Shown piece by piece: positions 1-64,000 of a stretch of DNA of 64,000 nucleotides. The notes beneath the pieces were generated by a model. It saw nothing but the letters and a program-made list of their open reading frames with translations, was not told the DNA's origin and made no database searches. The stretch is from Lachnospiraceae bacterium (GTDB lineage: Bacteria; Bacillota; Clostridia; Lachnospirales; Lachnospiraceae). Both the position numbers and the translations under genes were made by a program. How positions within the stretch are numbered: position 1 is the first letter of the stretch; each line of letters opens with the position of its first letter. The stretch spans positions 16,630 through 80,629 of the forward strand of contig JABUSY010000021.1 of NCBI GenBank assembly GCA_021442455.1, written 5' to 3'.

Positions 1-1
1 T

Positions 2-301
2 GATACGTATACGGTGCGATTTGCGGTCGGCATGTTGATGCGATTGTATCTAGATGATGCATTTAAGCCGGAATATCCGGAGCTTGTGGCTGGTATTAGG
101 TCAGATGAGTATTATATCAATATGATAGTTGCCTGGTATTTTGCTACAGCTCTGGCTAAGCAGTATAGGAAGATACTTCCGTTCTTACAAGAGAAACGGC
201 TGGATAAATGGACACACAATAAAGCAATCCAGAAGGCCGTGGAAAGCTACCGCATCACTGAGGAACAAAAGGTTTATTTGAAAACATTAAAAATAAAATA
301 A
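2..301 (+). CDS. DNA alkylation repair protein (AlkD-like HEAT-repeat family), 3' part; 5' end lies outside the window
   Basis: The frame is open from position 2 (DTYTVRFAVGMLM...). The C-terminal motifs YYINMIVAWYFATALAKQY and DKWTHNKAIQKAVESYRI are typical of this family. Confidence 0.75.
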   Translation, partial: DTYTVRFAVGMLMRLYLDDAFKPEYPELVAGIRSDEYYINMIVAWYFATALAKQYRKILPFLQEKRLDKWTHNKAIQKAVESYRITEEQKVYLKTLKIK

Positions 302-2149
302 ACATATAAAACTCTGAGACGAGAGGGAAAAGCAGCATTCGCAAATGATTGCTGAGGGATACTTTTCTGATGAGAAGTCTTTTAAAAGGATCAGGAGTCT
401 TTTGACTGGAGTGTTCGCTTCGATTACGTGGAGAATTTTTGTCAGTATGATAATCACTTTTTCGGCGATTCAGTAGTAGCTTGTTTGGTCAACGGTTGTT
501 TTTATTTTCTAGGATATAGGTTATAGCGTCTTGAGGGACGCTGTCTTGGGTTAGTGTTTTTGTAGCCTCGAAAGCGAACAGTATTATTTTGTTATTTGGC
601 TGTGCGAACTTAAGATAACAATTTTTTTTTATTCGTAATCCTTATCTGGTCTTTTCAGTAAAACAGCTGCGCTTTTCTAATGTTTTTAATATTGAGTGAT
701 TTTTAGTAATTTAATCTTCTCACAGTATGAATTGCAGTCAGTCCAGTGTGTATTTGGATTTGTGTTACATGCAATGATTCAGACAGGGCAGCAATATAGA
801 TAGTATAGTAGAGAAATTAGGTTTGTATTTTATATATCCTAAAATTTAAAAATGACTGCTGAAACAATCGTTTTTTAATATAATAGGATATTAAGTATTT
901 TGCAAATCAAATTTAGGAACGGCGCGATGAGGGATGATTTTCCACTCTCTAGCACTTTTCTCACTGTGTGGCTATAAACAACAGTACGCTTGATTCAAGT
1001 TTTTGAATAATCATTGATGATTTATTGGGCAATGTAGTCAATATGAAACGAAGACATGCTGATTATAAGCACATTGGAGATTCTAGCAGGATAAATCGAT
1101 ACAGTATGATTTTGATCCTTACGTAAACATTCTTTTTGCGGAGAGTTCGATTAACCATCAACAGGAATGGAGAGCTGTTTTTTTATGGATGCGCGTAAAA
1201 AGCGCCTGGGTCCTAAGATAAAAAGAAAAAAATCTATGAAATTAATGAATCTTCTTCAATACGTAGATGAGAATTTTTCTGCGTTTCTTGGAAAAGTTTG
1301 ATCCGTACAGATGGCCAGTGGTGAGCATCTAAATTTCGCTTTCCTGAAGGGAAAAAGAGCAAAGCACTGTTTACCGGCTCCTGAAAAAGATATAAGGTCA
1401 TATTTGCTGTAAGAATTTAATCTTATAGATAGAAGGTTCAGATTTTCTGGTTTATTCTTCATGATCATTATTTTATCTGAAGAAAGAACACTTTACTCCA
1501 CGGAGGAAGCTAGGTATAGGATAATGATATTTTGTTTCTTCAGAATTTGGTAACAAAGACGATTTTGCTGTCGCTCTTTTTTGTTTCGCAGCAGGTGACA
1601 GCAATATCATGTGCTGTTCCAAAGGAGATAGAGATTTTGCTGTCTTGGAGGGATGAATATTGAAATTCAGAAGCGACAGCATTTTAGTCGTCTTTGGCTG
1701 AAGCAATCTGAAGACAGGTATTATTTTGGCATAGCCAAAGGTAATGATAAGTTAGGAATATGTTTTTTCGATGGATAAGCTCGACGAATAGTCGTATTTC
1801 ATAAGCTAGTTGAAAATTATATACTTTAGTATCGGAAAGGCTTTAAAGGAAATGTATCATTTGGACAACGTTTTGTCCTGCCAGTACGGTCGCCATGTTT
1901 TTCGTTCCAGGATGAGCTTGTATGAAGGTCACACTTCTTTGTTAAAACATTAAAGCAACAGTCTTGAAAAAAGTTTATGCTTCCGGTTGTAATTGTCCAA
2001 TTTGGAATTTTCAGAAATTCGTTATTCATACGGCAATATTCATTTCTCGTGTATATGATATGAGATTAAAAGTCAGTTTGATTCAATCATTCACATTTGA
2101 CAGAGCGATATCGGAGGAACGGATTTTGCTGTTTAGGAGGATTCATCCT

Positions 2150-3100
2150 GTTTATTTTTCCTGAATCGTCTTAAACTTTTCGAGATTGATTTATTGTCGT
2201 CAATGGAAATCAGGCTCCGTTTTTTGAGTTATGCTAGTTTTGATGGTGATGAATCCGTTGTCAAATATGCTTTCTAGACCGTGCAACATGTAGTGATTTA
2301 GAATTGCTTACAAAGTGAGCTTTAACAAATTACAAATCAGAGGCCGTTAGCTACTATCAGAGGAGAGCGGTATTACTGTGAAATTAAGTTTTGTAATATT
2401 CTTGTGTTCTTACCATAGAGGTACCACATTGAAGACTTTGTTCACATTGCAGCGAAAAGATGAAAAGGGGCTTCTGTTATATCCTCACTTCCTCTGTATA
2501 TGATATTCCAGAACCTGCTAGTGAATGGAGTTTCAGAGTTGTTGTAGAAAAAATAAAGCTTAATCTGATGCTCAAAGTAAATTGGAGGGGGCTTTGCTTA
2601 GACGCTGATCGTAATCGTATATGTCCAAATTTGTATTCCGTTAATCTGTGTTCAAACAAGCTTTACGAGGAAAAATTCCGGAAAGGTGTTTTCTGGCGGC
2701 TAGTTCTTTGAAGTAATTATGGAAATTATGCGGGAAATTAGTTAGCCGTAACGCCTGCTAAGGAAAAGAAGTTGCATAAAAAAGAGATATACAGTGACTG
2801 TTGCATAAAGTAGGAATAAAAAGCGGGAAATTTCGTATACAGCTTCTACCGAAATAGACAATATTTTTATGTTTAGTTGATAGTAGGTGTAAAGAAATTG
2901 CATTCTCGTAGCGGATATATTGAACAGGACTAGGACTATAAACCAGTTCATTTGTAGATCTAACCGTCTAGATGGCTGTTTGGCATACCCTGAAGATTAA
3001 AATGTGAAATATGAAATATATATATACGCTTGGATATCACAGATGATCTTAGAATAGATGGAATCAAAGGCTGTTTTATTGCTAATTCTGATTGTTTCGT
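2150..3100 (-). pseudogene. Decayed YesM-like sensor histidine kinase
   Basis: Minus-strand fragments LHGLESIFDNGFITIK and LISIDDN resemble the HATPase N/G1 region (ENAIxHGLE...TITI...IEDNG). ASKQSPLQFTLSIRL loosely matches SQINPHFLFNxLESIRM. Multiple stops and frameshifts; boundaries approximate. Confidence 0.45.
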
Positions 3101-3935
3101 AACTATGGAAGGTGAAATCCTACATCGGTAGTAATGGAAATAGTGTTGAAAATTTCGGAAATTTCCAGATCTGATAGAATCAATGAATGGTACAGTTCAC
3201 ATAATCTTTATTTATATTTCGTAGAAACATATAAAAAGTTAGAAAAAAATATCCGGTGTATTGCTGCAGATATAATTTATTGTTTTAGTGATAGTGGTCT
3301 CTACGTTGGGATATACATAGCGTTTCGGTATCGGTGTATCACAATAGATATTAAATTTTTTTTTGGAAAAGTTAAGCTTTTGATTTTCGGCATAAAGAAC
3401 AGGCATATGCATCAACGAATCCTGGAACAGGATGAAATTTACTTGATATTCATCTATTTTTAATTAGGGATTTCTCTAGTGTAGTGATTAACTGTTCCTG
3501 CCTGAACAGATTTTTCCTCATTTCCGTTATGATACTAGTAAATTACATGACTTGGCCGTTGATCAGCTCTGTCTTATTAGTTGCATTTAGATGGTAGTCG
3601 GATATCCACAAAACACACATAGATTTATCTAGGAATATTCAAAATACTGATAGTCGTTGATAATGATGAAAGGGGTATCCACATCTCGTAATTGTTGTAC
3701 CAGGTCTAGGTCGTCATAATCAGATATTTTATTTGTATATCTATGATGACGATATCTAAATTGTGTTCCAAATGGTCTCTAAAGCTTTTCGATGTGGGGC
3801 CATTCCATAAAGTTTCAGTTCAAGTTTTCTTCCATTCGAACAGATTGATAATTGATTTTCAGACCTTTATTTTAGTAATCATTAGTAATCACATATGTGT
3901 GTTTTCGCATTTTATGGGTTGTATCTATTGAGATT
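3100..3935 (-). pseudogene. Decayed YesN/AraC-type response regulator
   Basis: Frameshifted receiver-domain fragments: KGLKSIINLFEWRKLELKLYGMA, HNLDIVIIDIQ, DDLDLVQQLRDVDTPFIIINDYQYFEYS* (consensus EGL..IDWE..G...DIVITDI.MP.MDGLELI..LR....FIILSGY.DFEYA). Confidence 0.6.
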
Positions 3936-4774
3936 GTTCTATAAAATTTCAAATCTAAAAATGATATACAGAAAATATATAAATGACGAAAAATAACGCT
4001 CATCTACTCAATATCATATATATAAGAAAATATAATAAAAGCTGGAGCAGATGAAGTGAAACGGATTGTGATGGCCAATGTATTCAGTGGCTATTTTGTA
4101 GAACCTGGAGTTTTTGATATATACTATCTTTCTGTCGGAAACAAAAGATCTCACATCGAAGAACCGGAGCAAAGGTTATATAAAGGTTATATGATAGTCA
4201 GGAAATCGGTAAATTTAGTACTGAAATTGGCAATAAGAGTGATTTTAGTTCCAATTCTTATTATGCAAAGAGTCATAGTGATAAATTTACGATTCAGTTT
4301 AAAAAGCGTTGAAGGAAGAGGAATTCTATGTGGATAATTGTGGAAGTTATTTTGGTACTGGACAATATACACCGTTAAACGGCGATCTGTATAAACTTGT
4401 ACGAGGAACATTCATTTGACATTTAAATTAAATGCCAGAGGTATTTACTGGAGATTTATGAAGCTGCCAAACAGCAAAGATCAAATTTATAATGCTAGTA
4501 TTTTGCTTTCCAGTTATTGGGAGGTGACTTGTACTTGGGAGACTTCCAGTAAAATTGAATGAAACAGGAAAATGTGGTGATTGCACTTCACTTAATGATG
4601 TGAAAGAAATATGAGGATCTTAGTTAGAAGATATCTTGATAGTCAATGTAGATAAAAATCAGGTAGTAAAGAGATTTTTGTCCTGTCAGACATTTTCTTC
4701 TAAGACACGAACTTAAAACGGAGAGGCTACGTGTTTAAGGAAAAAAATAAATTTGTTCAGTAGTTTTTATTTTT

Positions 4775-4814
4775 TATGAGATTTTGTAAAAACGTATGAG
4801 ATTTTGTAAAAACG
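4775..4814. repeat. Perfect 20-nt tandem duplication TATGAGATTTTGTAAAAACG x2
   Basis: Read directly: 4775-4794 is identical to 4795-4814. Confidence 0.95.
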
Positions 4815-5950
4815 GTATATTATTATACATAAAGGCCAGTGCTGCATCTGTATTTTTGTACTTCAGGAAAAGGAGAGATAATTGATGTGTAGGAAATGAT
4901 AAGTTATATATAGAGTGTATACAAAGAAAAATTATGGTTGAACAAAATTGTTACATGATGGCTTATGTCAGTCATTGCGCAACAATTTTAATTAGGAATA
5001 ATTATGGTTATTAAATTGTAGAAAACATCTTTATGAACTTAAGCAATTCGTATATATTGAAATCTCATCTTGAGTATGTTATTCTTGTAAAGAGCATAAA
5101 TAAATATTCATGCTGTGTGGAAAATCATTTTATGTGATTATCAGTATTTCTCAAAGATTTACAAAGTATATGTCTTGTGGAAAGTGAAAACATTGATATT
5201 GCAGGGATAGATTATGATTCCATGAGGGTAAGAAGAGCTTCTTAGTATAGAGATACATGGCACTTTGAATGAGAAATACGAATTTGCTGGCGATGCAATT
5301 GTTAAGGGCGGATGCTCTTGTAGTACAAGCATCAGTAAAAGTTACGGTTAAAACCGGTATGCCTAGGCATTCAGTATTATATGAAGATGTTGCTAGATTG
5401 TTTCGATTTAAATGGACATTCCGAGAAAAGGAAATTATATATATCTGACTGTTATAGTTATCTGCCGCTGTTTTTCTGTAACAAAAAATATACGTACTTC
5501 GTTGAAAAAAACAAAATCAAGGGATATGTGAAGATTTAATAGTTCATTTTTGTTCGACTCTCTCTACAATGCTATATTTGAAGAGCTTATTGACTACCTT
5601 GTTAGAATATTCCATGCATCGGATAGTGTAGTTGTTCTGCTGCGAAGGTAATCAGTTATATTTCAGATACTTTGAAAAGGGAGAGATTTTCGAACGGTTA
5701 ATCGATTTCATCACCATCATTTCGGATAATCTGAAGAATGAGATTTTTTCAGGAAAAATCATTGACGATATCAAAACCGGCTCATCAATGGGGGAGTAAT
5801 CAATGAATGAATGCGTTCTGCTTGAGAAAATCCTAGAGGAGGAGAGAAAAGTACAGTGAAGGGAAAGAGATGGCTGGTCACAGTTGTTACAGAATGAATA
5901 GTAACATCAGGAGACTGTTTGCGGGCGAATGATAAAAATAAGAGGGTAGT

Positions 5951-8182
5951 ATGAAGGAACAATACGCGGATATTATTGTTGATATCACTCACGAAAAGTT
6001 GGATCGGCCTTTCCAATACCAGATACCTTCTGAGCTGAAAGGGCAAGTACAGGCGGGAACACGAGTAAAGATCCCTTTTGGTGAAGGTAACCGTATCATC
6101 AATGGTTATGTGATCAGTTTGGGGAGTAGACCGAGATATAAACCAGAGAAAATTAAAAAAATTGCTGAAATGGCGGAAGACGGGATTACTGTGGACACAA
6201 AACTAATCATGCTGGCCACTTGGATTCGGCACACCTATGGTTCCACTATGATTCAGGCGCTGAAGACAGTAATGCCGGTAAAGGATAAGCAAAAAACCAA
6301 ATTCGGCAGAAAAATTCTGTTGAATGTCAATCAATTGCAGGCAGCCTTCTGGTTGGAGGAGTTTCGAAGAAAAAAATACAAGGCTAAGATTCGGCTCCTA
6401 GAGGCATTGCTGGAGCGGACAGAGCTTACTGATGAGTATGTTTCCAGAGAATTGAAGATATCTGAAGAGTCGATGAAAAAAATGACAGAGAAGGGAATTA
6501 TTCGCATGGTACAGCTTACAGTATATAGGAATCCTGTTGAGAAATTGGATGTTTTGCTGCAGGAGAAGGCAGTTCCAGATTTGACAGCGGAACAACAGAA
6601 GGTTTTGGATGGAATTCTCAGAGAATGGAAAGTCGGGGAGCGTCCATGTTTGATTCAGGGAGTCACGGGAAGCGGTAAGACACTGGTTTATATGAAGCTG
6701 ATAGAGAAGGTACTTTTGAAAGGACATCAAGTGATTATGCTGATTCCAGAGATTGCATTGACCTGGCAAATGGTCCAGCGGTTTTACCGAAGATTTGGTA
6801 GTTTGGTGACTGTTCTGAATTCTAAAATGTCTCCGGCAGAGAGGTATGACCAGTTTGAACGGGTAAAACGGGGAGACGTTCAGGTTATGATAGGTCCAAG
6901 ATCTGCTTTGTTTACACCGTTTTCGAGACTTGGATTAATTGTGATTGACGAGGAGCATGAAAATTCGTACCGTAGCGAAGGAACGCCAAAATATCATGCG
7001 CGCGAAACAGCGATCGCCAGAGGAAAGTTGGAGGGAGCACATGTAGTTATGGGATCAGCGATGCCGTCGATTGATGCTTATTATAGGTGCAAACAAGGAC
7101 ACTATGCGTTATTTCAGATAAAGAGTCAGTATGGAAATACAGTTTTCCCGAAAATATATCTTGTGGATATGCGAGAAGAATTAAAAAAAGGAAATCGTAC
7201 AGTCTTGAGCAATTGCCTGCAGGAGGCTATCGAGCTTCGTCTAAAAGCTGGAGAACAGGTTATATTGTTTCTTAATAGGAAAGGATATGCAAGCGTCATT
7301 TCTTGCAGAGCCTGCGGACATGTGATTAAATGTCTTCACTGCGACGTTCCCCTCACGTATTACAATAATGGCAGGCTGATCTGCCATTATTGTGGTTTTG
7401 ATAGGGAAGAGCTAAGGAGCTGCCCGAAGTGCAACTCACCGTATATCGGAGGCTTTTACGCTGGAACTCAGCAAGTGGAGCAGATGGTGAAGAAGTTTTT
7501 TCCGAAGGCTAGGACGTTGCGGATGGATGCGGATACTACCAGAGGAAAAGATAAATCTGAGAGGATTCTGAAAGCATTTTCTGCAGAAAAAGCAGATATT
7601 CTGATTGGTACCCAGATGATTGTAAAAGGACATAATTTTTCGAAAGTGACACTGGTTGGAGTGATTGCTGCCGATATGACTTTGTTCGCCAGTAATTACA
7701 GAGCGGCAGAACGGACGTATCAGTTGTTGGCGCAGGCGATTAGTTGTGCAGCTCAGAGAGAATTGCTTGGAGAAGTTGTGATACAAACTTACTATCCGGA
7801 GCATTACAGCATAAAAGCAGCCCTTTCGCAGGATTATGAAGCTTTCTATGAAAAGGAGATTGATAGCCGCGAGCTGATGAATTATCCGCCTGTATCAAAT
7901 TTGCTAGCTGTTCGCGCTTCTTGTGACAGGGAGGATCATTTACAGAATGCTATGGACTATATCAGGAGATATTTGCTTAAGATTAAAAGGAAGAAGGATT
8001 TTCAATTGGTAGGACCGGCGCCAGAAAGCATTGCTAAGATCCAGGATTATTACAGGGAAGTATTATATCTAAAGAGCAAAGAGAAACAGGAACTGATCCG
8101 GTTGCGGGAATTGTTGGAACATTATATAGAGACCAATAGTGGATTTGCTTCTGTTCATATACAATTTGATTTTAATGTTTAA
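5951..8182 (+). CDS. priA: Primosomal protein N' (PriA), full length, with degenerate helicase motifs III and VI
   Basis: 743 aa. N-terminal LDRPFQY 3'-binding domain, Walker [13 protein letters not shown], four CxxC Zn pairs. Motif III reads SAM and motif VI reads QAISCAAQ. Confidence 0.97.
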   Translation: MKEQYADIIVDITHEKLDRPFQYQIPSELKGQVQAGTRVKIPFGEGNRIINGYVISLGSRPRYKPEKIKKIAEMAEDGITVDTKLIMLATWIRHTYGSTMIQALKTVMPVKDKQKTKFGRKILLNVNQLQAAFWLEEFRRKKYKAKIRLLEALLERTELTDEYVSRELKISEESMKKMTEKGIIRMVQLTVYRNPVEKLDVLLQEKAVPDLTAEQQKVLDGILREWKVGERPCLIQGVTGSGKTLVYMKLIEKVLLKGHQVIMLIPEIALTWQMVQRFYRRFGSLVTVLNSKMSPAERYDQFERVKRGDVQVMIGPRSALFTPFSRLGLIVIDEEHENSYRSEGTPKYHARETAIARGKLEGAHVVMGSAMPSIDAYYRCKQGHYALFQIKSQYGNTVFPKIYLVDMREELKKGNRTVLSNCLQEAIELRLKAGEQVILFLNRKGYASVISCRACGHVIKCLHCDVPLTYYNNGRLICHYCGFDREELRSCPKCNSPYIGGFYAGTQQVEQMVKKFFPKARTLRMDADTTRGKDKSERILKAFSAEKADILIGTQMIVKGHNFSKVTLVGVIAADMTLFASNYRAAERTYQLLAQAISCAAQRELLGEVVIQTYYPEHYSIKAALSQDYEAFYEKEIDSRELMNYPPVSNLLAVRASCDREDHLQNAMDYIRRYLLKIKRKKDFQLVGPAPESIAKIQDYYREVLYLKSKEKQELIRLRELLEHYIETNSGFASVHIQFDFNV

Positions 8183-8195
8183 AGGAGAAATAAAA

Positions 8196-8681
8196 ATGGC
8201 GTTACGGAATATTAGAATCATGGGCGACAAGATACTGGAAAAGGTTTGTAGGCCTGTGAATACAGTAACCCCTCGACTTCGTGAGTTGGCGAAAGATATG
8301 TTGGAAACCATATATCATACCTACGGAGTTGGATTGGCCGCTCCTCAGGTAGGGATACTGAAAAGAATCGTGGTTATTGATGTGGATCGTGAGCATCCTC
8401 ATATCCTAATCAATCCAGAAATTCTTGATACCTGCGGAGAACAAACGGGGGATGAAGGCTGTCTGAGCCTTCCCGGAAAGTTAGGTAGAGTTACACGGCC
8501 AAATTACGTGAAAGTCCGAGCTTTTGATCTGGATATGAATCAGTTTGAATTAGAAGGAGTCGGTCTTTTGGCTAGAGCAATTTTTCATGAATGTGACCAT
8601 TTGGATGGTATTCTGTATACTTCTCGTGTGGAAGGAAAATTACGGGAGAATGTCGCACTGAAGGATGAAGAGAAAAAATGA
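8196..8681 (+). CDS. def: Peptide deformylase
   Basis: Motifs GVGLAAPQVG, EGCLS and HECDH. The start was moved to ATG 8196, behind an AAGGAG RBS. Confidence 0.97.
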   Translation: MALRNIRIMGDKILEKVCRPVNTVTPRLRELAKDMLETIYHTYGVGLAAPQVGILKRIVVIDVDREHPHILINPEILDTCGEQTGDEGCLSLPGKLGRVTRPNYVKVRAFDLDMNQFELEGVGLLARAIFHECDHLDGILYTSRVEGKLRENVALKDEEKK

Positions 8682-9610: not shown

Positions 9611-9630
9611 GAATAAAAGGAGGTAATAAA

Positions 9631-10320
9631 ATGGGACTATATTACTGTAGGTTTGAATGTATATTGATTTTGGTGACATTTTTTATTTCCCTGGTGGTTC
9701 AGTTGAACATGCATGGGACGTTTAAGAAGTATAGCCATATCAGAAGTATCAGCGGGATGACAGGAGGAGAAGCAGCGAAACAGATTTTGCGTAGAGCCAG
9801 AATTTTTGATGTTCAGGTAATGCATATTCATGGGAACTTGAACGATCACTATGATCCCTGGAGGAAGGTGATTAAGCTGTCTGATTCCATATACAGCGGC
9901 TCTTCTCTGGCAGCAGTGAGCGTAGCGGCACATGAATGCGGCCATGCGTTACAGCATGCTACGGCATATACGCCTCTTTTTGTCAGAAGCGCTTTGGTAG
10001 GGGTTTCTCATCTTGGCTCTCAACTTTCATGTCCATTGTTCTTGATAGGTCTGATTTTTTCCGTGCGGCCTCTTTTGACGGCCGGAATTTGCCTTTTCTG
10101 CGGAGCACTGTTATTTCAGCTGGTTACACTGCCTGTGGAATTTGACGCTTCCGACAGAGCACTTAGAATTTTGAAACAAACAGGAATTATGGTGCAGCAG
10201 GAGATATCAGGAACCCGTAAAGTGCTTAGAGCAGCAGCTATGACCTATGTAGTTGCTGTTGTAGCATCTATGATTCAGTTATTACGGCTGATTTTACTTT
10301 CAAGGAGAAACGATGACTAA
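9631..10320 (+). CDS. YugP-like membrane neutral zinc metallopeptidase
   Basis: DHYDP, AAHECGHALQ (HExxH) and TLPVEFDAS; conserved position after fmt. Confidence 0.88.
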   Translation: MGLYYCRFECILILVTFFISLVVQLNMHGTFKKYSHIRSISGMTGGEAAKQILRRARIFDVQVMHIHGNLNDHYDPWRKVIKLSDSIYSGSSLAAVSVAAHECGHALQHATAYTPLFVRSALVGVSHLGSQLSCPLFLIGLIFSVRPLLTAGICLFCGALLFQLVTLPVEFDASDRALRILKQTGIMVQQEISGTRKVLRAAAMTYVVAVVASMIQLLRLILLSRRNDD

Positions 10321-13903: not shown

Positions 13904-13959
13904 CGTAATATGATAAGAGTTATTAAATTCAGTATTTATATTTCGATTATCTCAAAACG

Positions 13960-54323: not shown

Positions 54324-55620
54324 AATGGATTATTGAATTTATGCAGAACGATTACCTAGATACAGTCGACATTTCAGGTATTGCTATTTCCGGAAAGGCA
54401 GTGGATGTGGTCGATGTGAAAGAGATTAATAGTGTGTTCAGGATGTCATTATTAGCAGTCTGCAGGGATTTGCAGGCGAGTTCAGTTTTTGTTAAAAAAG
54501 CGTCAGCAGATCAATGAAAAATATCAAGGATTTTGGAAAAACATCTCAATATACAAAACGAAGTAGAATTAAAAATTAGTTGATGGAGTAAACTATTACA
54601 AAGTATTTTTCGGTGCGTTGGTCACGAGGTTTAAGTAAGAAAAGAACGAATAGTCTTGTACAGCATGGAGAAAAGCAATTATAGAGTTATATGCGGATTG
54701 TAGCGGAAATAGCGCTGATGATTTTTAGCATTACTTATGCTTTTCTTTCATTTGATTTTGTGGAAGAAGGTTTTTCAGAATTGGTAATTTTGTGATTAAG
54801 GATCTGGTGAGTGTTCTTTTAATCGCTAATTTCTGTGCTGTTGAACGTGCTATTTTCATTTTCTGAGGCTTAAATTATTTGAGTTGTAGATGGTTAAGTG
54901 GTTCTTCTGCGGATCTTCTTTTGCAAAAAAAGTGCTAGGAGAGAATGATTGTCTGATAATCAGCAGGTGTGAAAAAAGGGAAAAAACAAAAAAATCAAAG
55001 AATTTTTCCTTTGCTTTTGGTATATTTTGTATTAGAATGAGTATGAGATTTATACAGTCTACTCTTATATAAGAAAGAGATTAAGTAGTTTGGAGTATGA
55101 GTTTAGACTATCATCGAGGAATGGATGTGAATGATGAAAAACACACTTGAAGGATTAAAATTAAAGTATATTTCAAAGATGAATATAGGAATGGGGGATA
55201 TAGAAGATAAAGTACTGACATCTATCTTCTGGAAGATAGATGTCAAAAAAATTTAAATAAGGAAGATAAGATTTTTTTGATGATAGAGATATATCATCAC
55301 TTATATTGCTCTGGAAATCGGTAGGCTGATCTATCAGCTTTCAATTTCGCTGTGTAAGATGTTTATTCAAGAAATATTTGCGAATAAATCTCACAATAAT
55401 TTTGATGCAGAGACTTGAATTACTATCAATAATTTTTTAAAAATAATCTCAATGTATCTGAAACGTCAAGATAGCTTTACATTCTCAGAAATATACTTCT
55501 CTATCAGCTGGATAAACTTCAGAAAATCGCCGGCTTTGATTTACAAATATTTAAGGATACGATTACCTTTAAAATTGTTTTGATAATTATAAAATATATA
55601 AAAACCTTGGATTACTCAAA
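54324..55620 (+). pseudogene. CdaR/PucR-family HTH transcriptional regulator remnant
   Basis: The 3' part is well preserved: IGRLIYQLSISLCKMFIQEIF...NNLNVSETSR*LYILRNILLYQLDKLQKIAGFDL. Stops include TAG at 55472; usual position upstream of ftsE. Confidence 0.85.
55216..55245. repeat. Near-perfect palindrome TGACATCTATCTTC-TG-GAAGATAGATGTCA
   Basis: Perfect 14-bp arms with a 2-nt spacer. Confidence 0.9.
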
Positions 55621-55654
55621 GTTTTACAGGAAAGCTAGCTATAGGAGGATAATC

Positions 55655-56338
55655 ATGATAACTTTAGATAGTGTGAGTAAGAGTTATGAAAAAGGGAAGC
55701 CAGCCATTCATAACATATCCTTACACATTGACAAAGGGGAATTTGTTTTTGTGGTCGGTGACAGCGGTTCTGGAAAGTCAACACTGATTAAGTTACTTCT
55801 GAAGGAGCTCAATCCGTCGTCTGGCACTATATTTGTCAATGGGAAAATCTTGAACAAGCTTACGCGAAGGCAAATATCCAAGTATCGTAGGAGCCTTGGT
55901 GTGGTTTTTCAGGATTTTCGTTTACTGAAGGACAGGAATGTTTATGAAAATGTAGCTTTTAGCCAAAGAGTGATTGAGAAGCCGAACTGGATGATCAAGA
56001 AAAGAGTGCCTGAAGTGCTAACTTTGGTGGGGTTAGCAGATAAATACCGTTCAAATCCAAAGGAGCTGTCTGGAGGCGAACAACAGAGAGTGGCCTTGGC
56101 CAGAGCTCTGGTGAACCGTCCTAAAATTCTGCTGGCCGATGAACCGACCGGGAACCTGGACCCAAAGAACTCCAATGAGATTATGAAAATGTTGGAAGAA
56201 ATTAGCGAATGTGGCACTACAGTGCTGGTAGTGACTCACAACAAGGGAATTGTCAATGTGATGAAAAAAAGGGTGATTCACCTGCGGAAAGGCGTCATTA
56301 TAAGCGACGAAAAAGAAGGTATTTACGTTGAAAATTAA
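55655..56338 (+). CDS. ftsE: Cell division ABC ATPase FtsE
   Basis: GDSGSGKST, VFQDFRLL, LSGGEQQRV and DEPTGNLD. The start was moved to ATG 55655 after AGGAGG. Confidence 0.96.
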   Translation: MITLDSVSKSYEKGKPAIHNISLHIDKGEFVFVVGDSGSGKSTLIKLLLKELNPSSGTIFVNGKILNKLTRRQISKYRRSLGVVFQDFRLLKDRNVYENVAFSQRVIEKPNWMIKKRVPEVLTLVGLADKYRSNPKELSGGEQQRVALARALVNRPKILLADEPTGNLDPKNSNEIMKMLEEISECGTTVLVVTHNKGIVNVMKKRVIHLRKGVIISDEKEGIYVEN

Positions 56339-57248
56339 TACTATAGGCTATGGCGTCAAGCAGGGAATTAAGAATATCTGGAGGAACAAAATGTTCTCAC
56401 TAGCCTCCATTGCGACTATGGGCGCGTGTATTTTTTTGTTTGGTTTGTTCTTTGCGCTGAACCTTAACTTTACTTATATTATGAAGAATGTGGAAAGCAA
56501 CGTGGGCATTACAGTATTTTTTAATGAAGGGTTGGATCAGGCATCAATTGATACAATTGGTCAGGAGATCCGGAATCGAACGGATATTGTGACGAAATGC
56601 AATTACGTTTCTGCAGACGAAGCATGGGAAAGTTATATAGCAGAGTATTTTGAAGGGAATACACAGGCAGCAGAGGGGTTCAAAGCAAATAAGGATAATC
56701 CGCTGAAACATTCGGCTCATTATGAGGTTTATGTCAATGAAATCGAGAAACAGAACGAGCTGGTGAATTATATAAAAGGATTGGAAGGTGTGAGAAATAT
56801 TAACCAGTCGCAGCAAGCTTCAGAAACTCTCTCTACGATCAACAGGCTAATTACTACTGTTTCAATGCTTCTCATTATCATCCTGTTAGCGGTCTCAATC
56901 TTTTTAATCAGTAATACAATCTCTGTAGGAGTTTCAGTGCGAAAGGAAGAAATAGGAATTATGAAATTGATTGGAGCTACAGATACATTCGTAAGGCTTC
57001 CATTTATATTGGAAGGTATCCTAATTGGTTTGGTCGGTGCGGCTATTCCACTGACGGCCCTGTATTTTCTGTATAATCAGGCCATAGAGTATATACTTAC
57101 AAAATTCAGTGTGCTACAAAATTTTATGAACGGCTTGCAGCCTGTCAATCATGTCTTTCAGTTTCTACTTCCAGTAGGATTGATACTTGGTATGGGAATT
57201 GGTTTTGTGGGAAGTTTCTTTACAATCCGAAAGCATCTGAAAGTTTGA
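56328..57248 (+). CDS. ftsX: Cell division permease FtsX
   Basis: NIWRNKMFSLAS, ISNTI...RKEEIGIMKLIGAT..FVRLPF and four TM helices. Confidence 0.95.
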   Translation: MKINTIGYGVKQGIKNIWRNKMFSLASIATMGACIFLFGLFFALNLNFTYIMKNVESNVGITVFFNEGLDQASIDTIGQEIRNRTDIVTKCNYVSADEAWESYIAEYFEGNTQAAEGFKANKDNPLKHSAHYEVYVNEIEKQNELVNYIKGLEGVRNINQSQQASETLSTINRLITTVSMLLIIILLAVSIFLISNTISVGVSVRKEEIGIMKLIGATDTFVRLPFILEGILIGLVGAAIPLTALYFLYNQAIEYILTKFSVLQNFMNGLQPVNHVFQFLLPVGLILGMGIGFVGSFFTIRKHLKV

Positions 57249-57262
57249 AAAAAATTTTTTGA

Positions 57263-57292
57263 GACGGAGGAATGTCTCCTCCGTCCTTTGTT
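57263..57292 (+). terminator. Probable intrinsic terminator after ftsX
   Basis: GACGGAGGA-ATGTC-TCCTCCGTC stem-loop followed by CTTTGTT. Confidence 0.55.
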
Positions 57293-57325
57293 ATATAATG
57301 ACTGAAACTGTGAAGGAGTGTTAAT

Positions 57326-58495
57326 ATGGAGGACAAGAAAAATAAGAGCTTCGGTATTCAATATTTGTTTAAAAATATTCTTGTTATCTGCCTAGCGCTT
57401 GAAGTTCTGTATTTTGTGATTATGTGTTTTCCGCTTGGAGGCGTACCGAATATTTTTCATACTCAGAGAAAGATTCAGGAAATTGAACATCTGATTGAAA
57501 ATCATTATTTAGGCGAGGTAGAGAAACAACATCAAGCAGATTGTATGTTTCTGGGTTTGGTGGAAGGGCTAGGGGATCGGTATTCAACATATTATACTCA
57601 GGAAGAATATGCGCAACTCAAAAAGAAACAGGATGGCGTCTTTGTAGGTATCGGAATAACAATTGTGCAGAGAAGTGAAGATAAAAAAATTCAGGTATTT
57701 GAATGTATAGAAGATTCCCCGGCTGCAAAAGCCGGCGTAAAATCTGGCGATGTGATCGAAAGCGTTGAGGGTAAAAATGTCACAGGGATGAGTAGCAAAC
57801 AGGTGATGGAGCTGATTCAGAAGTCAGATAATACTACAATTACTATGGTGTTGACAAGGGAAGGCAGTGATGCGTCGATAACAGTTGAGATTGCCAAAGA
57901 AACGGTGAAAATAAAATTTGTCAAAGGAGAGATGCTGAAAAACCAGATCGGGTATATTCAGATCACGGATTTTACAGATGTGACTTCTTCACAGTTCGAG
58001 AAAATATATGAGGAGTTAAAGGAGAAGGGATTGCAAAAACTCGTTATCGATTTAAGGGATAATCCGGGAGGACTGTTGGATGGTGTCTGCGACACTTTGA
58101 GTCAGATTCTGCCTGAAGGTATAATTGTCTATACAAAGGATAAGGATGGTAACCAGAACAAACGGGATTGCGCAGGTAGGACGCCGATTGACATTCCATT
58201 GGTGATACTTGTAAATGAAGGGAGTGCCAGCGCGTCAGAGATATTTGCTGGGGCGGTTAAAGATTATGGCATTGGAACCTTGGTTGGAGAAAAGACTTTT
58301 GGAAAAGGTATCGTACAGAATACTTATAAGCTGTCGGACGGAAGTGTAGTTAAGCTAACGGTGGCTCATTATTATACGCCGAAGGGAGATGATATCAACG
58401 GAACGGGAATTATACCGGACGTAGAAGTGAAAGAGCCGGAGGAGAGCAAAACTGATGTACAGCTTGACAAAGCGCTGGAAATTTTGACTTCCTGA
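57326..58495 (+). CDS. S41 C-terminal processing protease (CtpA-like)
   Basis: N-terminal TM, PDZ (FVGIGI), DLRDNPGG, NEGSASASE and KTFGKG. Confidence 0.93.
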   Translation: MEDKKNKSFGIQYLFKNILVICLALEVLYFVIMCFPLGGVPNIFHTQRKIQEIEHLIENHYLGEVEKQHQADCMFLGLVEGLGDRYSTYYTQEEYAQLKKKQDGVFVGIGITIVQRSEDKKIQVFECIEDSPAAKAGVKSGDVIESVEGKNVTGMSSKQVMELIQKSDNTTITMVLTREGSDASITVEIAKETVKIKFVKGEMLKNQIGYIQITDFTDVTSSQFEKIYEELKEKGLQKLVIDLRDNPGGLLDGVCDTLSQILPEGIIVYTKDKDGNQNKRDCAGRTPIDIPLVILVNEGSASASEIFAGAVKDYGIGTLVGEKTFGKGIVQNTYKLSDGSVVKLTVAHYYTPKGDDINGTGIIPDVEVKEPEESKTDVQLDKALEILTS

Positions 58496-59869
58496 TTTCT
58501 TTTTGCGGGAAAAGATAAAACGATATTAGGAAGTAAAAAAGATGAAAATACAGCTGGTTATGAAAAAACGGAAGGAGTTATCTACGAGAGTAGAGGATCA
58601 ACCTGTCTTTGAAGGTAAAAGGAGATAAACTATTTGACACGGATACGATCGGATTTTGTTTAATCGTAGATTTGTCTGTGTTGTCTCAAGAGTATATTAT
58701 GAGTACGGAGGATGGTTGGACCTGAATAGAAATAAGACTTCGCAAAAGAGAGGGAGTTATGAATATGTTGTACTAAATTTCGGAATTAGGTGAATGTTTC
58801 TGTTTGGTTAAACTGTTTGGTAATTTTGAGATAAAAAGGACTTAGGTTGTTTCGCTCGGTTTCAGGAAGAAAGGTTTACATCAGGCAGTATGGTATTAAA
58901 TGAAATGGGAAAGTCTGCTCTAGGTGTTTTTTAACATGAGCAATTATGAAGATTATAACAAAGGAAGAAGGTATGGATATCTGGATGCGCTCACAAAGGA
59001 GATTGTCAATATCCTGGATTTGATCACGGAACTTGGAAAGGGGTAGTAGTGAATGTGTGATTGGCAGATTGTATCTATTACATCAGGGAGTAGGAGGAAT
59101 AAAAGTGACAGAAATATAAGAATTATTCGGAGATTTAGATGTTGGATTTTGTGTATCATATACCGATAAACAGCTTCTATTATACTAATTTCGATATTGT
59201 CACCTGTAAACTGCTTTATACATGAAAAAAGTTAAGAAAGAAATATTTCAGGTAAAAAGCATTTTGGTTGAAAAATGCTTCAGAATAGGATGGATAGCCT
59301 TTATCCATTTTTTTTGTTACCAAAACTTTTTAAGTAGCCAGAGTGTCTCATTGTCAAGTAGTGGATGAAATAAATTAGTCTTTTGAATCGTTTTTATGAC
59401 AATGATGATATTTTGATTAAATAGGTTGATGATCGTACTGTTTATATGGTAGCATTCCGTAGATGTAACTAAGCAGTCGGAATATTCAGAAAGAAGTTGA
59501 CACAGATCTTCAAGTGTAAGGCTGGGAAGATTTTGTTGATGTAGAGGATTTCAGAAAATAGGCGAACGGGAGTTCCGCTGCTTAAGTGCATCTATGATCT
59601 AGATAGTTTAAAGGATGTTAAATGATAATTATGGAATTATCAAAGAAGGAAGAAGAGGACTCTCTTGTCTGAAGTAGATTGTATTATAGCATATAGCATC
59701 TGAGCATAGAAGTTTTCGTTTTCTGGATGAGTGGCAATAAATTTTTGATTGTTTTCTTAAGTATGGAAGGTAGACAGTCGTTTTAAAGTATGAGATTTCA
59801 ACTGTATAATAAGATTCAGTTGAAAAAAGAAATCCTCAGAAAGATCCAGAATTTCCATTTTATTTTTTT

Positions 59870-60340
59870 CTGATTGTTGATCTTCGACATGGACGATTGC
59901 AAGCATATATAATGAACTTTATAACAGAAAATTTGAGGATGAAGTTTTGCAAATTATCTCTCAAGTAGATCTATTCTATTCTTCCTGGGAATGCGGAGCG
60001 GTACCGAATGGATGGGAATAAGTTCTGCTTTCTGTTTAAAGGTTCTTGGCTTTTAAAAAATCAGGTTTTGGTCTCAAAGGATTCAGGAAGTATTCCAGAA
60101 TCAGTAGCAGTATAACGGAATATTATTGTATGGTATTAGGCAGTGAATCTTTTTATCTGTAGAATGGAAACTCTGATCAAATATGTAGTCTATGAGCTAG
60201 AATTTACGAAAAATAACGGACAAAACAGGTCCAAGATATTTCATTGTCCAGGTTTTTGGTACCATAAGAGAGAGTTACTTCTGAATGAACTTGCTCGGAG
60301 AAAGTATGTAAGGCTTATTCTTTTGGAAGGTTTATATCGG
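59870..60340 (+). pseudogene. GGDEF-domain protein remnant
   Basis: LIFDMDDCKHI/NELYNRKFEDEVLQIISQ and YRMDGNKFCFLF resemble DIDxFKxINDxYGHxFGDEVL and YRxGGDEF. Upstream parts of the gene probably extend further left. Confidence 0.65.
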
Positions 60341-60390: not shown

Positions 60391-62364
60391 TCACAATTCT
60401 TCTAAATTTTTCTTCAATTCGATCATTTTATCCCTGAGTTTGGCCGCACTCTCAAAGTTTAGGTCGGCGGCCGCAGCTTTCATCTGATTCTGAATCTTTT
60501 CGATCAGCTTTTTAAGCTTTTCGCGACTCATACATTCCAGATTTGTTTCCAGATAGTTTTCCTTATGGGTTTTGGAGATACTAATCAGATCCTTGACGCT
60601 TTTCTGGATGGTTTTTGGGGTGATGTTATGTTCTTGGTTATAAGCTTCTTGAACCTCTCGGCGTCTTGTTGTTTCCTCAATGGCATGGCGCATGGATTCA
60701 GTTATTACATCCGCGTACATGATGACATGGCCGTTTATATTCCGGGCGGCTCGACCGATAGTCTGGATTAGCGAGGTTTCTGAACGGAGAAAGCCTTCTT
60801 TGTCGGCGTCAAGAATGGCCACAAGGGTGATTTCCGGAATATCAAGCCCTTCACGGAGCAGGTTGATACCGACCAGGACATCAAATATATCTAAGCGAAT
60901 ATCGCGGATGATTTTTATTCGTTCAATGGCATCGATATCGGAATGAAGGTAACGAACCCTGATCCCAGACTCTTTCATATAGTCCGTGAGATCTTCTGCC
61001 ATGCGTTTGCTGAGTGTTGTGATTAGGACTTTGTGATGCAGTGCGCTCTCGTTGTTAACTTCACAGATCAGGTTATCAATCTGCCCTGTGGCAGGGCGCA
61101 CCGTTACTCTTGGATCCAGAAGGCCTGTGGGACGAATGATTTGTTTGGCTCTCAGAAGTTCGTGATCGGCCTCATACTGGCCCGGTGTGGCAGATACGAA
61201 TAGGATTTGGTTAATCTTGCTTTCGAATTCTTGAAAGCTTAGAGGGCGATTATCCTTGGCAGAAGGGAGGCGAAACCCATATTCTACTAGAGTAGTCTTG
61301 CGTGACTGGTCTCCGGAAAACATTCCTTCAATTTGTGGAATCGTCTTGTGGGATTCATCAATGATGATGAAAAAATCTTTTGGAAAGAAATCTATCAGTG
61401 TATAGGGTGCTTGTCCAGGCTTTAGACATGACATGTGCCGAGAATAATTTTCTATGCCGGAACAAATTCCTGTTTCACGAAGCATTTCAATATCGAAATT
61501 TGTTCGTTCTTCGATCCGCTGGGCTTCCAGGAACTTTCCTGCATTTTTAAAATAGCGGACTCGCTCTTCTAATTCTTTTTTTATTTCTTTGGTTACTTTC
61601 AACATCGTTTTTATGGGGAGAACGTAATGATTAACGGGGGAGATAGTCACATATTTTAATTCCGAGCGTATTCTTCCAGTGAGCGCGTCGATCTGTGTGA
61701 TGCGGTCGATTTCGTTGCCGAAAAATTCGATGCGGACAGCTATATCGCTTTCCTTGGCTGGAATAATTTCCACTACATCCCCTCGCACACGAAAGGTACC
61801 TCTATGAAATTCTATCTCATTTCGTTCGTACTGTATATCAATCAACTCCCTGATTACTTCGTCCCGGTCCTTTTGCATACCTGAGTGCAGGGCGATGATC
61901 ATTTTCACATAATCTTTTGGGCTTCCCAGACCGTAAATACAGGAAACACTGGATACGACAATGACGTCCTTCCGATCGATCAGGGAAGAAGTGGTGGATA
62001 GGCGTAATTTGTCGATTTCATCATTTATAGAGGAGTCCTTGGAGATATACGTATCGGAAGAGGGCACGTAGGCTTCTGGTTGATAGTAATCGTAGTAGGA
62101 GACAAAATACTCCACTGCGTTATCAGGGAACATCTCCTTGAATTCTCCGTACAATTGAGCAGCAAGTGTTTTATTATGTGCGATAACGAGAGTTGGCTTC
62201 TGTAACTCCTGGATAACATTCGCCATCGTAAAAGTTTTACCTGAACCTGTAACCCCTAGTAAAGTTTGGCATTGATTGCCTTTCTTGAATCCTTTGACTA
62301 GATCTTCGATAGCCTTCGGTTGGTCTCCGGTAGGCTGATATTCGGATTGTAATTTGAACTCCAT
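60391..62364 (-). CDS. uvrB: Excinuclease ABC subunit B
   Basis: [41 protein letters not shown] and the C-terminal UVR domain; AAGGAGG RBS. Confidence 0.98.
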
Positions 62365-62568
62365 TGTATTTTACCTCCTTGGTAATTTAATAAAAATTTT
62401 GTCAATTTACAATACCATTTTATTTCAAGTTTTTTACCGTTCCCATATCAATAAAATCCGGTTTTGCATCTCATTATTATATCGCAGGAGAAGGTGTTTG
62501 ATCTTTATTTTTTTCTTCTGCTGATTTACTGCTTTTCTCTCGTTTTTTAATATTGTTTCATTTATTTT

Positions 62569-62598
62569 TCAAACTCAGAAATATATTTCTGAGTTTGA
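62569..62598. repeat. Perfect 30-bp palindrome TCAAACTCAGAAATATATTTCTGAGTTTGA
   Basis: Self-complementary with no spacer, about 200 nt upstream of uvrB. Confidence 0.95.
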
Positions 62599-64000
62599 CT
62601 TATTCGGAAAACTTCATATTTTTTTCTACTTTTTGATAGGGCATATCATGAGAGATTTCACCTTTTTCATCCAAATACATCTTTATAGAAAATCAGTTAT
62701 TTTTCAAAAATTACTTTATCTGTTCTATCTAATTTCGCATACTCACTTATTGAGTTAATTTATTAATTTTGCAATAAACATTGTCATTAGTTACTTTAAT
62801 GGGGAAATACTAATATTTTTTGACTTTCTTCCGTTTGTAGTATTTTTCGTTGCGTTTTTTCAGTAACTATAAAATGAAGTTTATTTTAAATAAATGCATA
62901 AAAATTCTTTATCATTTTTCTCTTTTTATCGTAATCAAAAACTACACTGTTCGCATATATTTGTGATTTTTGGATATTATTTTACGTTCACTATTTATAC
63001 TTTCCTTCCTTATCAATAAAACTGATTCTTTTTTAAAACAGTTGCGTCTATTTTAAAATTTTCTGCGAAAAGATTTTTCTATATATTTTAAATTCCTTGG
63101 TTATTCAATAACTTTATAGTTTCTTTTGCTTTGATGGTATTCAAAAGCTATCATCCTCGAATATAACATTTACATATAGGTAAATATTTATTCGTTATAA
63201 TCTCTTTCTATGCAATCATTAAACATGTGTGTTTTATATTACTTTTATATACTACAATGTATAATTTTATATCAAATTTTTGGCATGTTTCTTCCGAATT
63301 TTGACACTATTTTAAAAAATTTTTCTCCAATCTCTGTTTAGATACAATTTTTTTTGTAATACTAATTCTTAAATTCAAAAACCATATAATTATTCAGTAA
63401 AGATCCTTGAGGAATTCCAAAAACTGTTTTATTAGTCAGTTGGATGAATATTGGATGTTCATGCGAGAAATGCCTTCTGTAGTTTTCATATGTTCTTTCA
63501 TAAAATATTAAAATTTGTTGCAAACAGTTTTTTAAGTATGGCAGAACAGGTTTTTTATACTGTTTTTATTGGATCAGTGATTGTAATCTTTGTAAGGGCT
63601 GCAATGTTTCATCCGTCAGGCGTTATTACTGAAAATGGAACTTCGTTCTTTAAATTCATGATACAAGACTTCAACATTTTTGCACAGTTTAGTTAGAAAT
63701 CTAGACAATGAGTATTTGATGGTTTTTGTAGATCATAATAAAAACAGATTACAGACAGCATTCACTTTGCGTGTATCTTGAGCATCGAAGAAAGTAAAAT
63801 TGTCTGATGAAGAAGCTTTATATGCTATCTCCTAAAGTATTTTGACAGATAGATTACTTTCAGAAAGGCATTCTCATAGTAAATTCCATTTATAGATCAA
63901 TATGAAAAAAACAACGAAAATAAATCCGTTATGTTGCATATCAATATAGGTTAATAAAAGTTATTCTTTATCTGCGGGTATAGAGTGTAAAGAGAAAGTC

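Follow-up and report, generated by a model that had tools for sequence, protein, structure and literature searches.

Lachnospiraceae are the archetypal free-living, spore-forming, butyrate-producing commensals of the gut. Genomes of which only about half is coding are known from other bacteria. That of Mycobacterium leprae is 49.5% coding and carries about 1100 pseudogenes, which are old, persistent and syntenic with the genes of a larger relative; it has seen no burst of insertion sequences (IS), and its informational core is intact. Sodalis glossinidius, Sodalis pierantonius (SOPE) and Serratia symbiotica are also about 50% coding, with young, near-identical pseudogenes and often a massive IS expansion. 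A passage of PMC9248898 gives 1789 genes and 1564 pseudogenes for Mycobacterium lepromatosis. The Acutalibacteraceae endosymbionts of termite-gut protists have genomes of 1.0-1.3 Mb with 790-839 protein-coding sequences (CDS), 41-44 tRNAs, low GC and 94-248 pseudogenes; they possess an ATP/ADP translocase, lack glycolytic ATP generation and have been shown to live intracellularly (PMC10579323). Among gut Firmicutes, former spore-formers combine the loss of sporulation with a smaller genome and a narrower metabolism (Browne et al. 2021, PMC8340488). A preprint on rumen ciliates covers Ruminococcaceae and Acutalibacteraceae only. Here we analysed a 64,000-nucleotide stretch of DNA (the window), positions 16,630 to 80,629 of contig JABUSY010000021.1, in which intact genes alternate with the wrecks of others. 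We describe the decay, its extent and age, its mutation spectrum, the acceleration of rates and the genes kept and lost. The window very probably comes from, and is typical of, the chromosome of an uncultured Lachnospiraceae bacterium of the gut after long, genome-wide reductive evolution. A preliminary description of this DNA knew of no Lachnospiraceae genome in such a state, and our literature search likewise found no paper on a member of the family that is comparably eroded.

The genome that holds the window (G000) is a 1,380,865-bp metagenome bin of 72 contigs, in which the window is C1:16630-80629. Its completeness is 98.4% and its contamination 1.4%. The eight other members of its genus measure 2.3-3.95 Mb. 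The proposed origin in Lachnospiraceae was confirmed with PriA: the relatives that carry names are all Lachnospiraceae (Blautia, Mediterraneibacter, Faecalimonas and Ca. Egerieimonas, 49-57% identity), and in the PriA tree G000 is sister to the species of the genus-mate G003 (SH-aLRT 100). Tree and titles together contradict membership of the Acutalibacteraceae small-genome clade. The terminal branches of the tree are 0.25 for G000 and 0.012 for G003. G003 is the closest genus-mate, with a closed 3.95-Mb chromosome (2.9 times the size of G000), a GC content of about 49% (0.37 in G000), a PriA that is 81% identical and a DNA divergence from G000 of about 17%. Its PriA carries the NCBI name 'Lachnospiraceae bacterium LCP19S3_B12' and appears in 199 blocks of the assembly collection, which marks G003 as common in the gut. 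Among 5.8 billion proteins, a set that very near genomes may lie outside, no PriA more than 81% identical was found besides that of G000 itself. The host was sought as well: a search of DNA runs and an exact-protein look-up of FtsZ gave no match, the LCP19S3 strain names of the sister were met in no paper, and the sample codes of the sister's metagenomes gave no host. A more distant relative bears the sample code GAIO21, which from its author-year naming we take to be that of a pig gut study. PriA, Fmt, PknB, YchF, MurD, FtsZ, UvrC and UvrB of the window are ordinary bacterial genes.

Coding density was approximated by the coverage of open reading frames (ORFs). In the window, ORFs of at least 100, 150 and 200 amino acids (aa) covered 55%, 51% and 46%, respectively. 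The same script gave 92%, 87% and 83% for 160 kb of syntenic G003 DNA and a mean of 92% (minimum 85%) for 46 further Lachnospiraceae loci. Window ORFs with a full-length G003 orthologue added up to 33.1 kb (51.7%), in agreement with the 33-34 kb of intact CDS first tallied by hand. Low coding density extended through the whole of G000, in which 747 non-overlapping ORFs of at least 100 aa made up 52% of 1.38 Mb and stop-to-stop frames of at least 150 aa spanned 50%. Each contig above 10 kb had an ORF coverage within 26-69%. The window is typical of its genome, and the suspicion that it might be an exceptional segment was not borne out.

The gaps between genes are not RNA genes, as no tRNA and no Rfam family was found in the window. 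We also considered an alternative genetic code; reading TGA, TAG or TAA as sense lengthened frames only as the removal of any stop does, and this candidate was rejected. A self-BLAST of G000 found no repeat above 330 bp, within the limit that metagenome bins can drop repeats. Traces of mobile elements in G000 amounted to one PDDEXK_2 transposase-like remnant and one phage contig. The latter (C23, 9.2 kb, 91% coding) encodes a phage head module, which includes an SPP1-type portal and a major capsid protein of the Phage_capsid family (PF05065), and its GC matches that of G000. Another dense contig (C32, 9.7 kb, 95% coding) encodes an MscS channel, three dynamin-like GTPases, a B12-binding radical SAM enzyme and a SPASM radical SAM enzyme. 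ARAGORN found 41 tRNAs and a tmRNA in G000, with none for Ala, Ile or Trp. Genes for tRNA-Ala and tRNA-Ile usually lie inside rRNA operons, which bins often miss.

We compared the window with RNA contigs from Logan assemblies of four metatranscriptome libraries, which represent two gut samples of 2021. In genes and in the dead regions alike, these contigs matched the window with 0 mismatches and 0 gaps. The identical stretches included 5104-5595, several places within 29460-32116, 41445-43861, 45978-46418 and 55019-55196. The internal stop codon of aroE was confirmed by a contig of run X4 at 33862-34019 with 0 differences. The highest RNA depth in the window was found over the rpsM-rplQ block. 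The organism was therefore alive, and its dead DNA was transcribed at a low level, like many of its genes. G000 contigs share 55-59 nt at their ends, as is characteristic of de Bruijn assemblies of short reads. The preliminary description had asked for read mapping in case the disruptions were assembly errors; contigs derived from RNA reads reproduce the disrupted sequence exactly, and that objection fails. In ftsZ (27799-28205), one RNA contig of run X2 showed 20 differences from the window over 407 positions, almost exclusively transitions. Another contig from the same sample was identical to the window over the shared part, 27932-28205. The pair hints that this gut may harbour another strain or species at about 5% divergence.

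To follow the loss gene by gene, the window was compared with 240 kb of syntenic G003 DNA. A colinear DNA alignment covered 79% of the window. DNA identity was 80-86% in intact genes and 66-76% in the stretches between them. Intact orthologues were colinear with G003 at 65-92% aa identity; remnants matched at 30-58% aa identity, in two or three frames and over 10-75% of the G003 protein. Among 168 syntenic G003 ORFs, 33 were intact in the window, 27 were remnants (one of them merely cut by the window edge) and 108 had left no trace. With the aroE pseudogene, which we counted separately, this exceeds the ten or more frameshifted remnants reported at first. A genome-wide sample of 480 G003 ORFs in 28 stretches (20 evenly spaced and 8 syntenic with the window) yielded 64 intact orthologues, 39 multi-frame fragments on ten contigs and 285 ORFs with nothing. 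Scaling the remnant-to-intact ratio of 0.6-0.8 to about 750 ORFs suggests, by extrapolation, 450-600 recognisable pseudogenes in G000.

Between aligned blocks, G003 holds 137.8 kb and the window 12.5 kb, so that about 125 kb are absent from the window, in individual gaps of 0.3-30 kb. In aligned dead DNA, small deletions (186, removing 678 bp) and small insertions (191, adding 362 bp) were nearly balanced and hardly shrink the wrecks. Occasional large deletions are thus the main route of DNA loss. At 41401-41770, the window jumps from G003 position ~2,201,410 (uvrC) to ~1,953,751; the 247-kb G003 segment at this junction is thus either missing at this point or located elsewhere in G000.

Changes on each branch were counted by parsimony in seven genes, with the lineage L126 as the outgroup. 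The G000 branch had 315 amino-acid changes and the G003 branch 41 (7.7-fold). At four-fold sites the counts were 135 and 71 (1.9-fold). Neutral change has thus been roughly twice as fast on the G000 branch, where the protein-to-silent ratio is also about fourfold that of the G003 branch. Pairwise dN/dS was 0.13 between G000 and G003 and 0.07 between G003 and the outgroup. The GC content at four-fold sites (GC3) was 0.41 in G000, 0.67 in G003 and 0.59 in the outgroup. We then polarised the substitution spectrum with G003 as the ancestor. In dead DNA, GC-to-AT change reached 0.35 per site, against 0.065 for AT-to-GC, and four-fold sites had the same C:G-to-T:A pattern. On the leading strand, 35% of ancestral C had become T and 24% of G had become A. 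Because of this excess of C-to-T over G-to-A, the GC skew rose from 0.17 to 0.27; the skew is driven by leading-strand cytosine loss, although ung is intact. On the plus strand of window positions 1-60000, the GC skew is +0.2 to +0.35, and nearly all genes lie on that strand. Loss of ung or mutS was considered as the cause of the C-to-T bias and rejected, as both genes are intact. The loss of repair genes, which is frequent though not a rule in pseudogene-rich reduced genomes, was not found: ung, mutS, uvrB and uvrC are intact, and only PriA looks damaged, in motif VI.

The divergence of G000 from G003 is 0.37 at four-fold sites (dS about 0.7). Applied to the composition of dead DNA, the four-fold rates predict an identity of about 68% for DNA that has been neutral since the split. 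The oldest remnants had 66-69% DNA identity and most had 67-74%, and aroE was at the level of live genes. Since the oldest remnants have reached neutral divergence and aroE is still like a live gene, genes started to die close to the lineage's origin and are dying still. The collapse has been old and slow, in the manner of M. leprae and not in the recent manner of Sodalis. The preliminary description had likened the lineage to recently host-restricted ones; 'recently' has to be given up, as the oldest remnants are as diverged as DNA left neutral since the G003 split.

In degree and age, M. leprae is the nearest analogue. As in that species, about half of G000 is coding, old remnants are syntenic with the genes of a larger relative and informational genes are intact. 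The two differ in that G000 is a strict anaerobe of the gut from another phylum, whereas M. leprae is an intracellular pathogen of nerve and skin. Their genomes measure 1.38 and 3.3 Mb, the AT shift of M. leprae is mild and that of the G000 lineage strong (GC3 from 0.67 to 0.41), and no dispersed repeat families were seen in G000. The nearest taxonomic analogue is the Acutalibacteraceae clade in termite-gut protists, with which G000 shares the class Clostridia, a gut habitat and a similar size and gene number. G000 belongs to another family and order, so its reduction had an independent origin. Unlike these endosymbionts, G000 keeps aldolase and purF, and a much greater part of its genome is dead. 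A search for the ATP/ADP translocase (PF03219) gave no match in G000, a weak negative, as the control genomes gave none either. With Sodalis, SOPE and Serratia symbiotica, G000 shares a coding fraction of about 50%, many pseudogenes and close relatives with intact genes. Unlike in these symbionts, most of its remnants are at 30-55% aa and 66-76% DNA identity, the divergence of neutral sites, and no IS expansion is visible. Like the former spore-formers of the gut, G000 has lost Spo0A and sporulation genes while its relatives keep Spo0A; it goes beyond them in being 48% non-coding and in its excess of amino-acid change. Those former spore-formers reportedly have an ordinary coding density and live as ordinary commensals. 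The process is textbook reductive evolution; the family in which it occurs and the informative sister genome are its unusual strengths.

The dead genes and regions of the window are listed below, with the strand where one applies. Identities refer to G003, and L125 and L126 are relatives whose intact orthologues were used for Pfam naming. Genes inside the two graveyards were named from Pfam matches of the G003 protein.

380..605, minus: cupin-domain gene remnant, two frames, 51-54% aa; Pfam Cupin_2 on the G003 protein
690..5012: orphan dead DNA, 4.3 kb, GC 0.33, stops in six frames; G003 has only 529 bp here
5057..5856, plus: remnant of a MurE-type Mur ligase (514 aa in G003), three frames, 39-58% identity, 44% left; Pfam Mur_ligase N/M/C; includes the first RNA-matched stretch above
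10320-10680, plus: rsmB remnant, 27% of the protein left; Pfam of L125/L126 orthologues
10830-11111, plus: rlmN remnant, 35% of the protein left; Pfam of L125/L126 orthologues; rsmB and rlmN remnants have 34-53% identity, with about 1.8 kb deleted relative to G003
13945..14683, plus: remnant of rsgA (ribosome small-subunit GTPase), three frames, 32-42% aa, 67% DNA; Pfam RsgA (L126)
15364-15923, plus: thiamine pyrophosphokinase remnant; Pfam TPK (L126)
16181-16351, plus: PD-(D/E)XK transposase-like remnant; PDDEXK_2 on the G003 protein; this and the preceding remnant (15364..16351) lie in two frames at 45-48% identity
22226..22555, plus: remnant of a second class B penicillin-binding protein (PBP), SpoVD-like, 597 aa in G003, 18% left, 37% identity; Pfam Transpeptidase and PBP_dimer
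25628..26350, plus: SEDS gene remnant of the dcw cluster (FtsW/SpoVE type), three frames, 49-53%; Pfam FTSW_RODA_SPOVE
28678..33442: gene graveyard of 4.8 kb; matching G003 span about 68 kb; 31-48% aa, 1-3 frames
29906-30049: transketolase-N remnant, in the 4.8-kb graveyard
30656-31340: FGGY sugar kinase remnant, in the 4.8-kb graveyard
31394-31992, minus: SorC-type regulator remnant, in the 4.8-kb graveyard
32221-33199: CoA-transferase remnant, in the 4.8-kb graveyard
33317-33442: acyl-CoA dehydrogenase remnant, in the 4.8-kb graveyard
33436..34332, plus: aroE pseudogene, single in-frame TAG at 33907-33909, 85% aa across the stop
35172-35516, plus: spoIIGA remnant; Pfam Peptidase_U4 on the G003 protein
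35727-36105, plus: remnant of the adjacent sporulation sigma factor, sigE type; Pfam Sigma70_r2/r4 on the G003 protein; this and spoIIGA have 33-51% identity in at most 3 frames
38721..39120, plus: remnant of a 655-aa G003 gene, 37% aa over residues 394-501, 71-79% DNA; about 13 kb of G003 DNA missing directly upstream
41770..46273: gene graveyard of 4.5 kb; matching G003 span about 32 kb; 67-81% DNA, 34-70% aa; further remnants at the DNA level
43459-44369: octopine-dehydrogenase-like remnant, in the 4.5-kb graveyard
44760-44873: permease remnant of a branched-chain-amino-acid-type ABC transporter, in the 4.5-kb graveyard
44918-45313: substrate-binding protein remnant, in the 4.5-kb graveyard
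45717-45850: MatE efflux pump remnant, in the 4.5-kb graveyard
50469..50650, plus: diacylglycerol-kinase-family remnant, 15% left, 41% identity; Pfam DAGK_cat
54688-54849, plus: YitT-family membrane protein remnant, named by Pfam
55131-55615, plus: PucR-type regulator remnant, named by Pfam; YitT and PucR remnants (54416..55615) have 44-66% aa and 72-73% DNA identity, with 19-42% of the proteins left
58674-59000, plus: remnant of a 273-aa gene, from the G003 comparison
59112-60298, plus: remnant of a GGDEF-EAL-PAS signalling protein (862 aa); Pfam GGDEF, EAL, PAS_3; this and the preceding remnant (58674..60298) lie in three frames at 34-46% aa and 67-74% DNA
~63365-63730, minus: faint remnant of a 518-aa G003 gene, 27-42% in pieces by tblastn, 76% DNA at 63363-63549
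62365..64000: non-coding tail, GC 0.29

aroE is the youngest pseudogene found in the window. The orphan segment at 690-5012 had no DNA match in 8 genomes of the genus, no protein match among about 6900 ORFs of relatives and nothing similar elsewhere in G000; its sole ORF (109 aa, 3134-3463) matched no Pfam family. It may have been a foreign element that then decayed, or ancestral DNA that has disappeared from G003.

The survivors are informational, cell-division and central genes, as follows.

1..298, plus: 3' part of a DNA-alkylation-repair-like gene, cut by the window start, apparently intact; 87% aa to G003 ORF A_26538; Pfam DNA_alkylation at the orthologous position in relatives
5951..10320, plus: priA, def, fmt and a Zn-peptidase gene, open frames, full length, 78-88% aa; NCBIfam PriA, Fmt
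11136..13903, plus: PP2C phosphatase and PASTA Ser/Thr kinase, 80-86% aa; NCBIfam PknB_PASTA_kin
14694..15356, plus: rpe (ribulose-phosphate 3-epimerase), 86% aa; Pfam Ribul_P_3_epim in the L126 orthologue
16456..21844, plus: ychF, mraZ, rsmH, ftsL and a class B PBP gene, 66-87% aa; NCBIfam YchF, Pfam MraZ and Methyltransf_5; the PBP scores under the NCBIfam SpoVD cut-off
22926..25282, plus: mraY and murD, 76-83% aa; NCBIfam murD, Pfam Glycos_transf_4
26503..28677, plus: ftsQ-like gene and ftsZ, 65% and 91% aa; NCBIfam ftsZ
34323..35099, plus: aroD (type I dehydroquinase), 78% aa; Pfam DHquinase_I
36559..38456, plus: unit of a small protein, a DUF5685 protein and a DnaJ-domain protein, 73-82% aa; Pfam DUF5685, DnaJ
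39313..41181, plus: uvrC, 85% aa; NCBIfam uvrC 635 bits
46386..49464, plus: rpsM, rpsK, rpsD, rpoA and rplQ, 86-92% aa; Pfam S13, S11, S4, L17
49541..50275, minus: short-chain dehydrogenase, 84% aa; Pfam adh_short
50898..54108, plus: class II fructose-bisphosphate aldolase and a 704-aa glutamine-synthetase-like gene with weak GlnA-family matches, 88-89% aa; Pfam F_bP_aldolase
55580..58495, plus: ftsE, ftsX and an S41 (CtpA-type) peptidase gene, 77-88% aa; Pfam ABC_tran, FtsX, Peptidase_S41
60391..62364, minus: uvrB, 85% aa; NCBIfam UvrB 1059 bits

Not every open frame is necessarily functional. Motif VI of PriA (5951-8182; motif at ~7733-7756) reads QAISCAAQR where relatives have QAxGRAGRG, with both arginines lost. 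PriA also has 19 private substitutions at columns that are invariant in 21 relatives, most of which have 0-4. Judged from these residues, PriA may be a cryptic pseudogene despite its open ORF, and our count of 'intact' genes is thus an upper bound.

The gene content of G000 gives some clues to its way of life. No match to Spo0A over the cut-off was found in G000; the gene is present in G002, G003, G005 and G006. Receiver-domain matches numbered 3 in G000 and 17-46 in its relatives. trpB was not found in G000, and G003 and G005 have it. Remnants among sporulation and envelope genes include spoIIGA, sigE, the SpoVD-like PBP and the dcw SEDS gene. G000 has kept purF, ung, mutS, uvrB, uvrC, ftsZ and ribosomal genes. 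Outside the window it carries intact SEDS paralogues at C5:14107-15246 and C3:16260-17003, one of which adjoins PBP2 (C3:14663-17003), and an intact MurE-type paralogue at C1:83392-84804. Given these intact copies, the dead SEDS, PBP and Mur ligase genes of the window do not mean a loss of cell-wall synthesis. The gene set fits a walled, dividing, repair-proficient anaerobe that does not sporulate, senses little, has lost tryptophan synthesis at least and much of its catabolism, and evolves under weak selection. Several companions of host restriction are present, namely a 2.9-fold smaller genome, the AT shift, faster protein evolution and the loss of sporulation, signalling and tryptophan synthesis. 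All four matching RNA runs are labelled 'gut metagenome'.

We propose the following course of events. After the split from G003, most accessory functions were released from purifying selection, and the remaining functions were held by a weaker form of it. Sporulation, two-component and cyclic di-GMP signalling, sugar and acyl-CoA (butyrate-type) metabolism, transporters, rRNA modification and tryptophan synthesis were inactivated, and the inactivated genes then drifted under strong C:G-to-T:A mutation pressure. DNA was lost mostly by medium and large deletions of 0.3-30 kb. With small indels near balance, many wrecks have lasted as long as the lineage itself and now fill nearly half of the genome. 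As the cause, we infer a shift to a confined gut life in small populations; life without spores would imply direct transmission. This is the most likely reading of the evidence, and the host restriction that it contains is reasonable but unproven.

Some findings weigh against this account. Contigs below 5 kb, about 6% of the assembly, are mostly 80-97% coding; these gene-dense contigs may be mobile DNA, recent acquisitions or mis-binned. The repair genes are intact and so give no genetic cause for the AT pressure and the increase in rate. The IS and repeat expansion of young symbionts is not seen, which in a metagenome bin is weak either way. The directions of change assume that G003 is near the ancestor, and the outgroup supports this for substitutions, not for large indels. 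Some of the 108 'absent' genes may be gains of G003. On host restriction, the metadata consist of the four RNA labels only.

More specific forms of confinement can be weighed against the same data. We suggest tentatively that G000 may represent the first Lachnospiraceae shown as a non-sporulating symbiont of the obligate kind, whose home might be the gut wall or a gut protist, in or on which it would live. Having kept nearly half of its genome as dead DNA since the split, it would stand out among old symbionts. For such a symbiont, the dead DNA would have been kept so long because small deletions barely outweigh insertions. A rather unlikely alternative is that the bacterium depends on other gut microbes (by cross-feeding or as an epibiont) instead of the animal host itself, or occupies a very narrow extracellular niche, a small effective population size driving the decay. 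The sister is a widespread commensal of the ordinary gut type. What the lost carbohydrate and acyl-CoA metabolism, transporters, tryptophan synthesis and sensing provided can come from a dense community, and the envelope and division machinery is kept. Sporulation loss together with genome reduction is also known in gut Firmicutes (PMC8340488). The 7.7-fold amino-acid excess and the 48% of dead DNA nevertheless imply drift beyond that of usual lumen bacteria, and the gut's former spore-formers reportedly keep a normal coding density.

The preliminary description thought an endosymbiont of a protist or animal possible. Strict isolation inside the cells of the host or of a gut protist, as an obligate symbiont or parasite comparable to the small-genome Acutalibacteraceae of termite flagellates, would explain the decay differently, and we consider it unlikely. 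With 1.38 Mb, about 750 ORFs, 41 tRNAs and low GC, G000 does resemble the clostridial endosymbionts (PMC10579323). It no longer has sporulation or most of its signalling, its proteins evolve at a strongly raised rate and the lineage is rare in public data, as judged from the PriA search within its stated set. On the other hand, G000 has kept peptidoglycan synthesis, two SEDS proteins, PBP2, FtsZ/Q/E/X, purF, aldolase, UvrBC, MutS and Ung, the GC-matching phage head module in the bin suggests exposure to phages, the sample information has no link to a protist and the translocase was not found, with the weakness noted above. There is a negligible chance that the low coding density is artefactual, be it through indels from sequencing or assembly, chimeric binning, an overlooked genetic code or the choice of an atypical window: G000 is a 72-contig metagenome bin whose small contigs differ in coding density, but its contamination is low (1.4%), all large contigs are in the same state, no stop-codon reassignment restores the frames, RNA contigs from other libraries agree base for base, remnants lie 10-15 points below intact genes in DNA identity and have lost kilobases rather than single bases, and kilobase deletions with 25-34% base divergence are unlike sequencing errors.

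Long, genome-wide reductive evolution of a gut Lachnospiraceae bacterium has practical consequences. Such genomes pass unnoticed through gene callers and completeness scores (98% here). Metabolic models built from them would over-count functions, and some frames look disabled although open, PriA among them. The path of insect symbionts and of the leprosy bacillus has also been taken inside Lachnospiraceae, where a genome has been cut to a third and half of it is dead. The common sister has a complete genome and is about 17% diverged in DNA, so that nearly every wreck can be paired with an intact counterpart. The pair is a natural experiment on which functions are dropped first, on the raw mutation spectrum and on how slowly dead DNA is removed; the functions dropped by this gut anaerobe are sporulation, sensing, sugar and acyl-CoA metabolism, tryptophan synthesis and rRNA modification. 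If the bacterium is indeed an obligate symbiont, it would offer, together with its sister genome, a rare Gram-positive, anaerobic system in which to measure how neutral DNA decays, how far deletions are favoured and in what order genes are lost.

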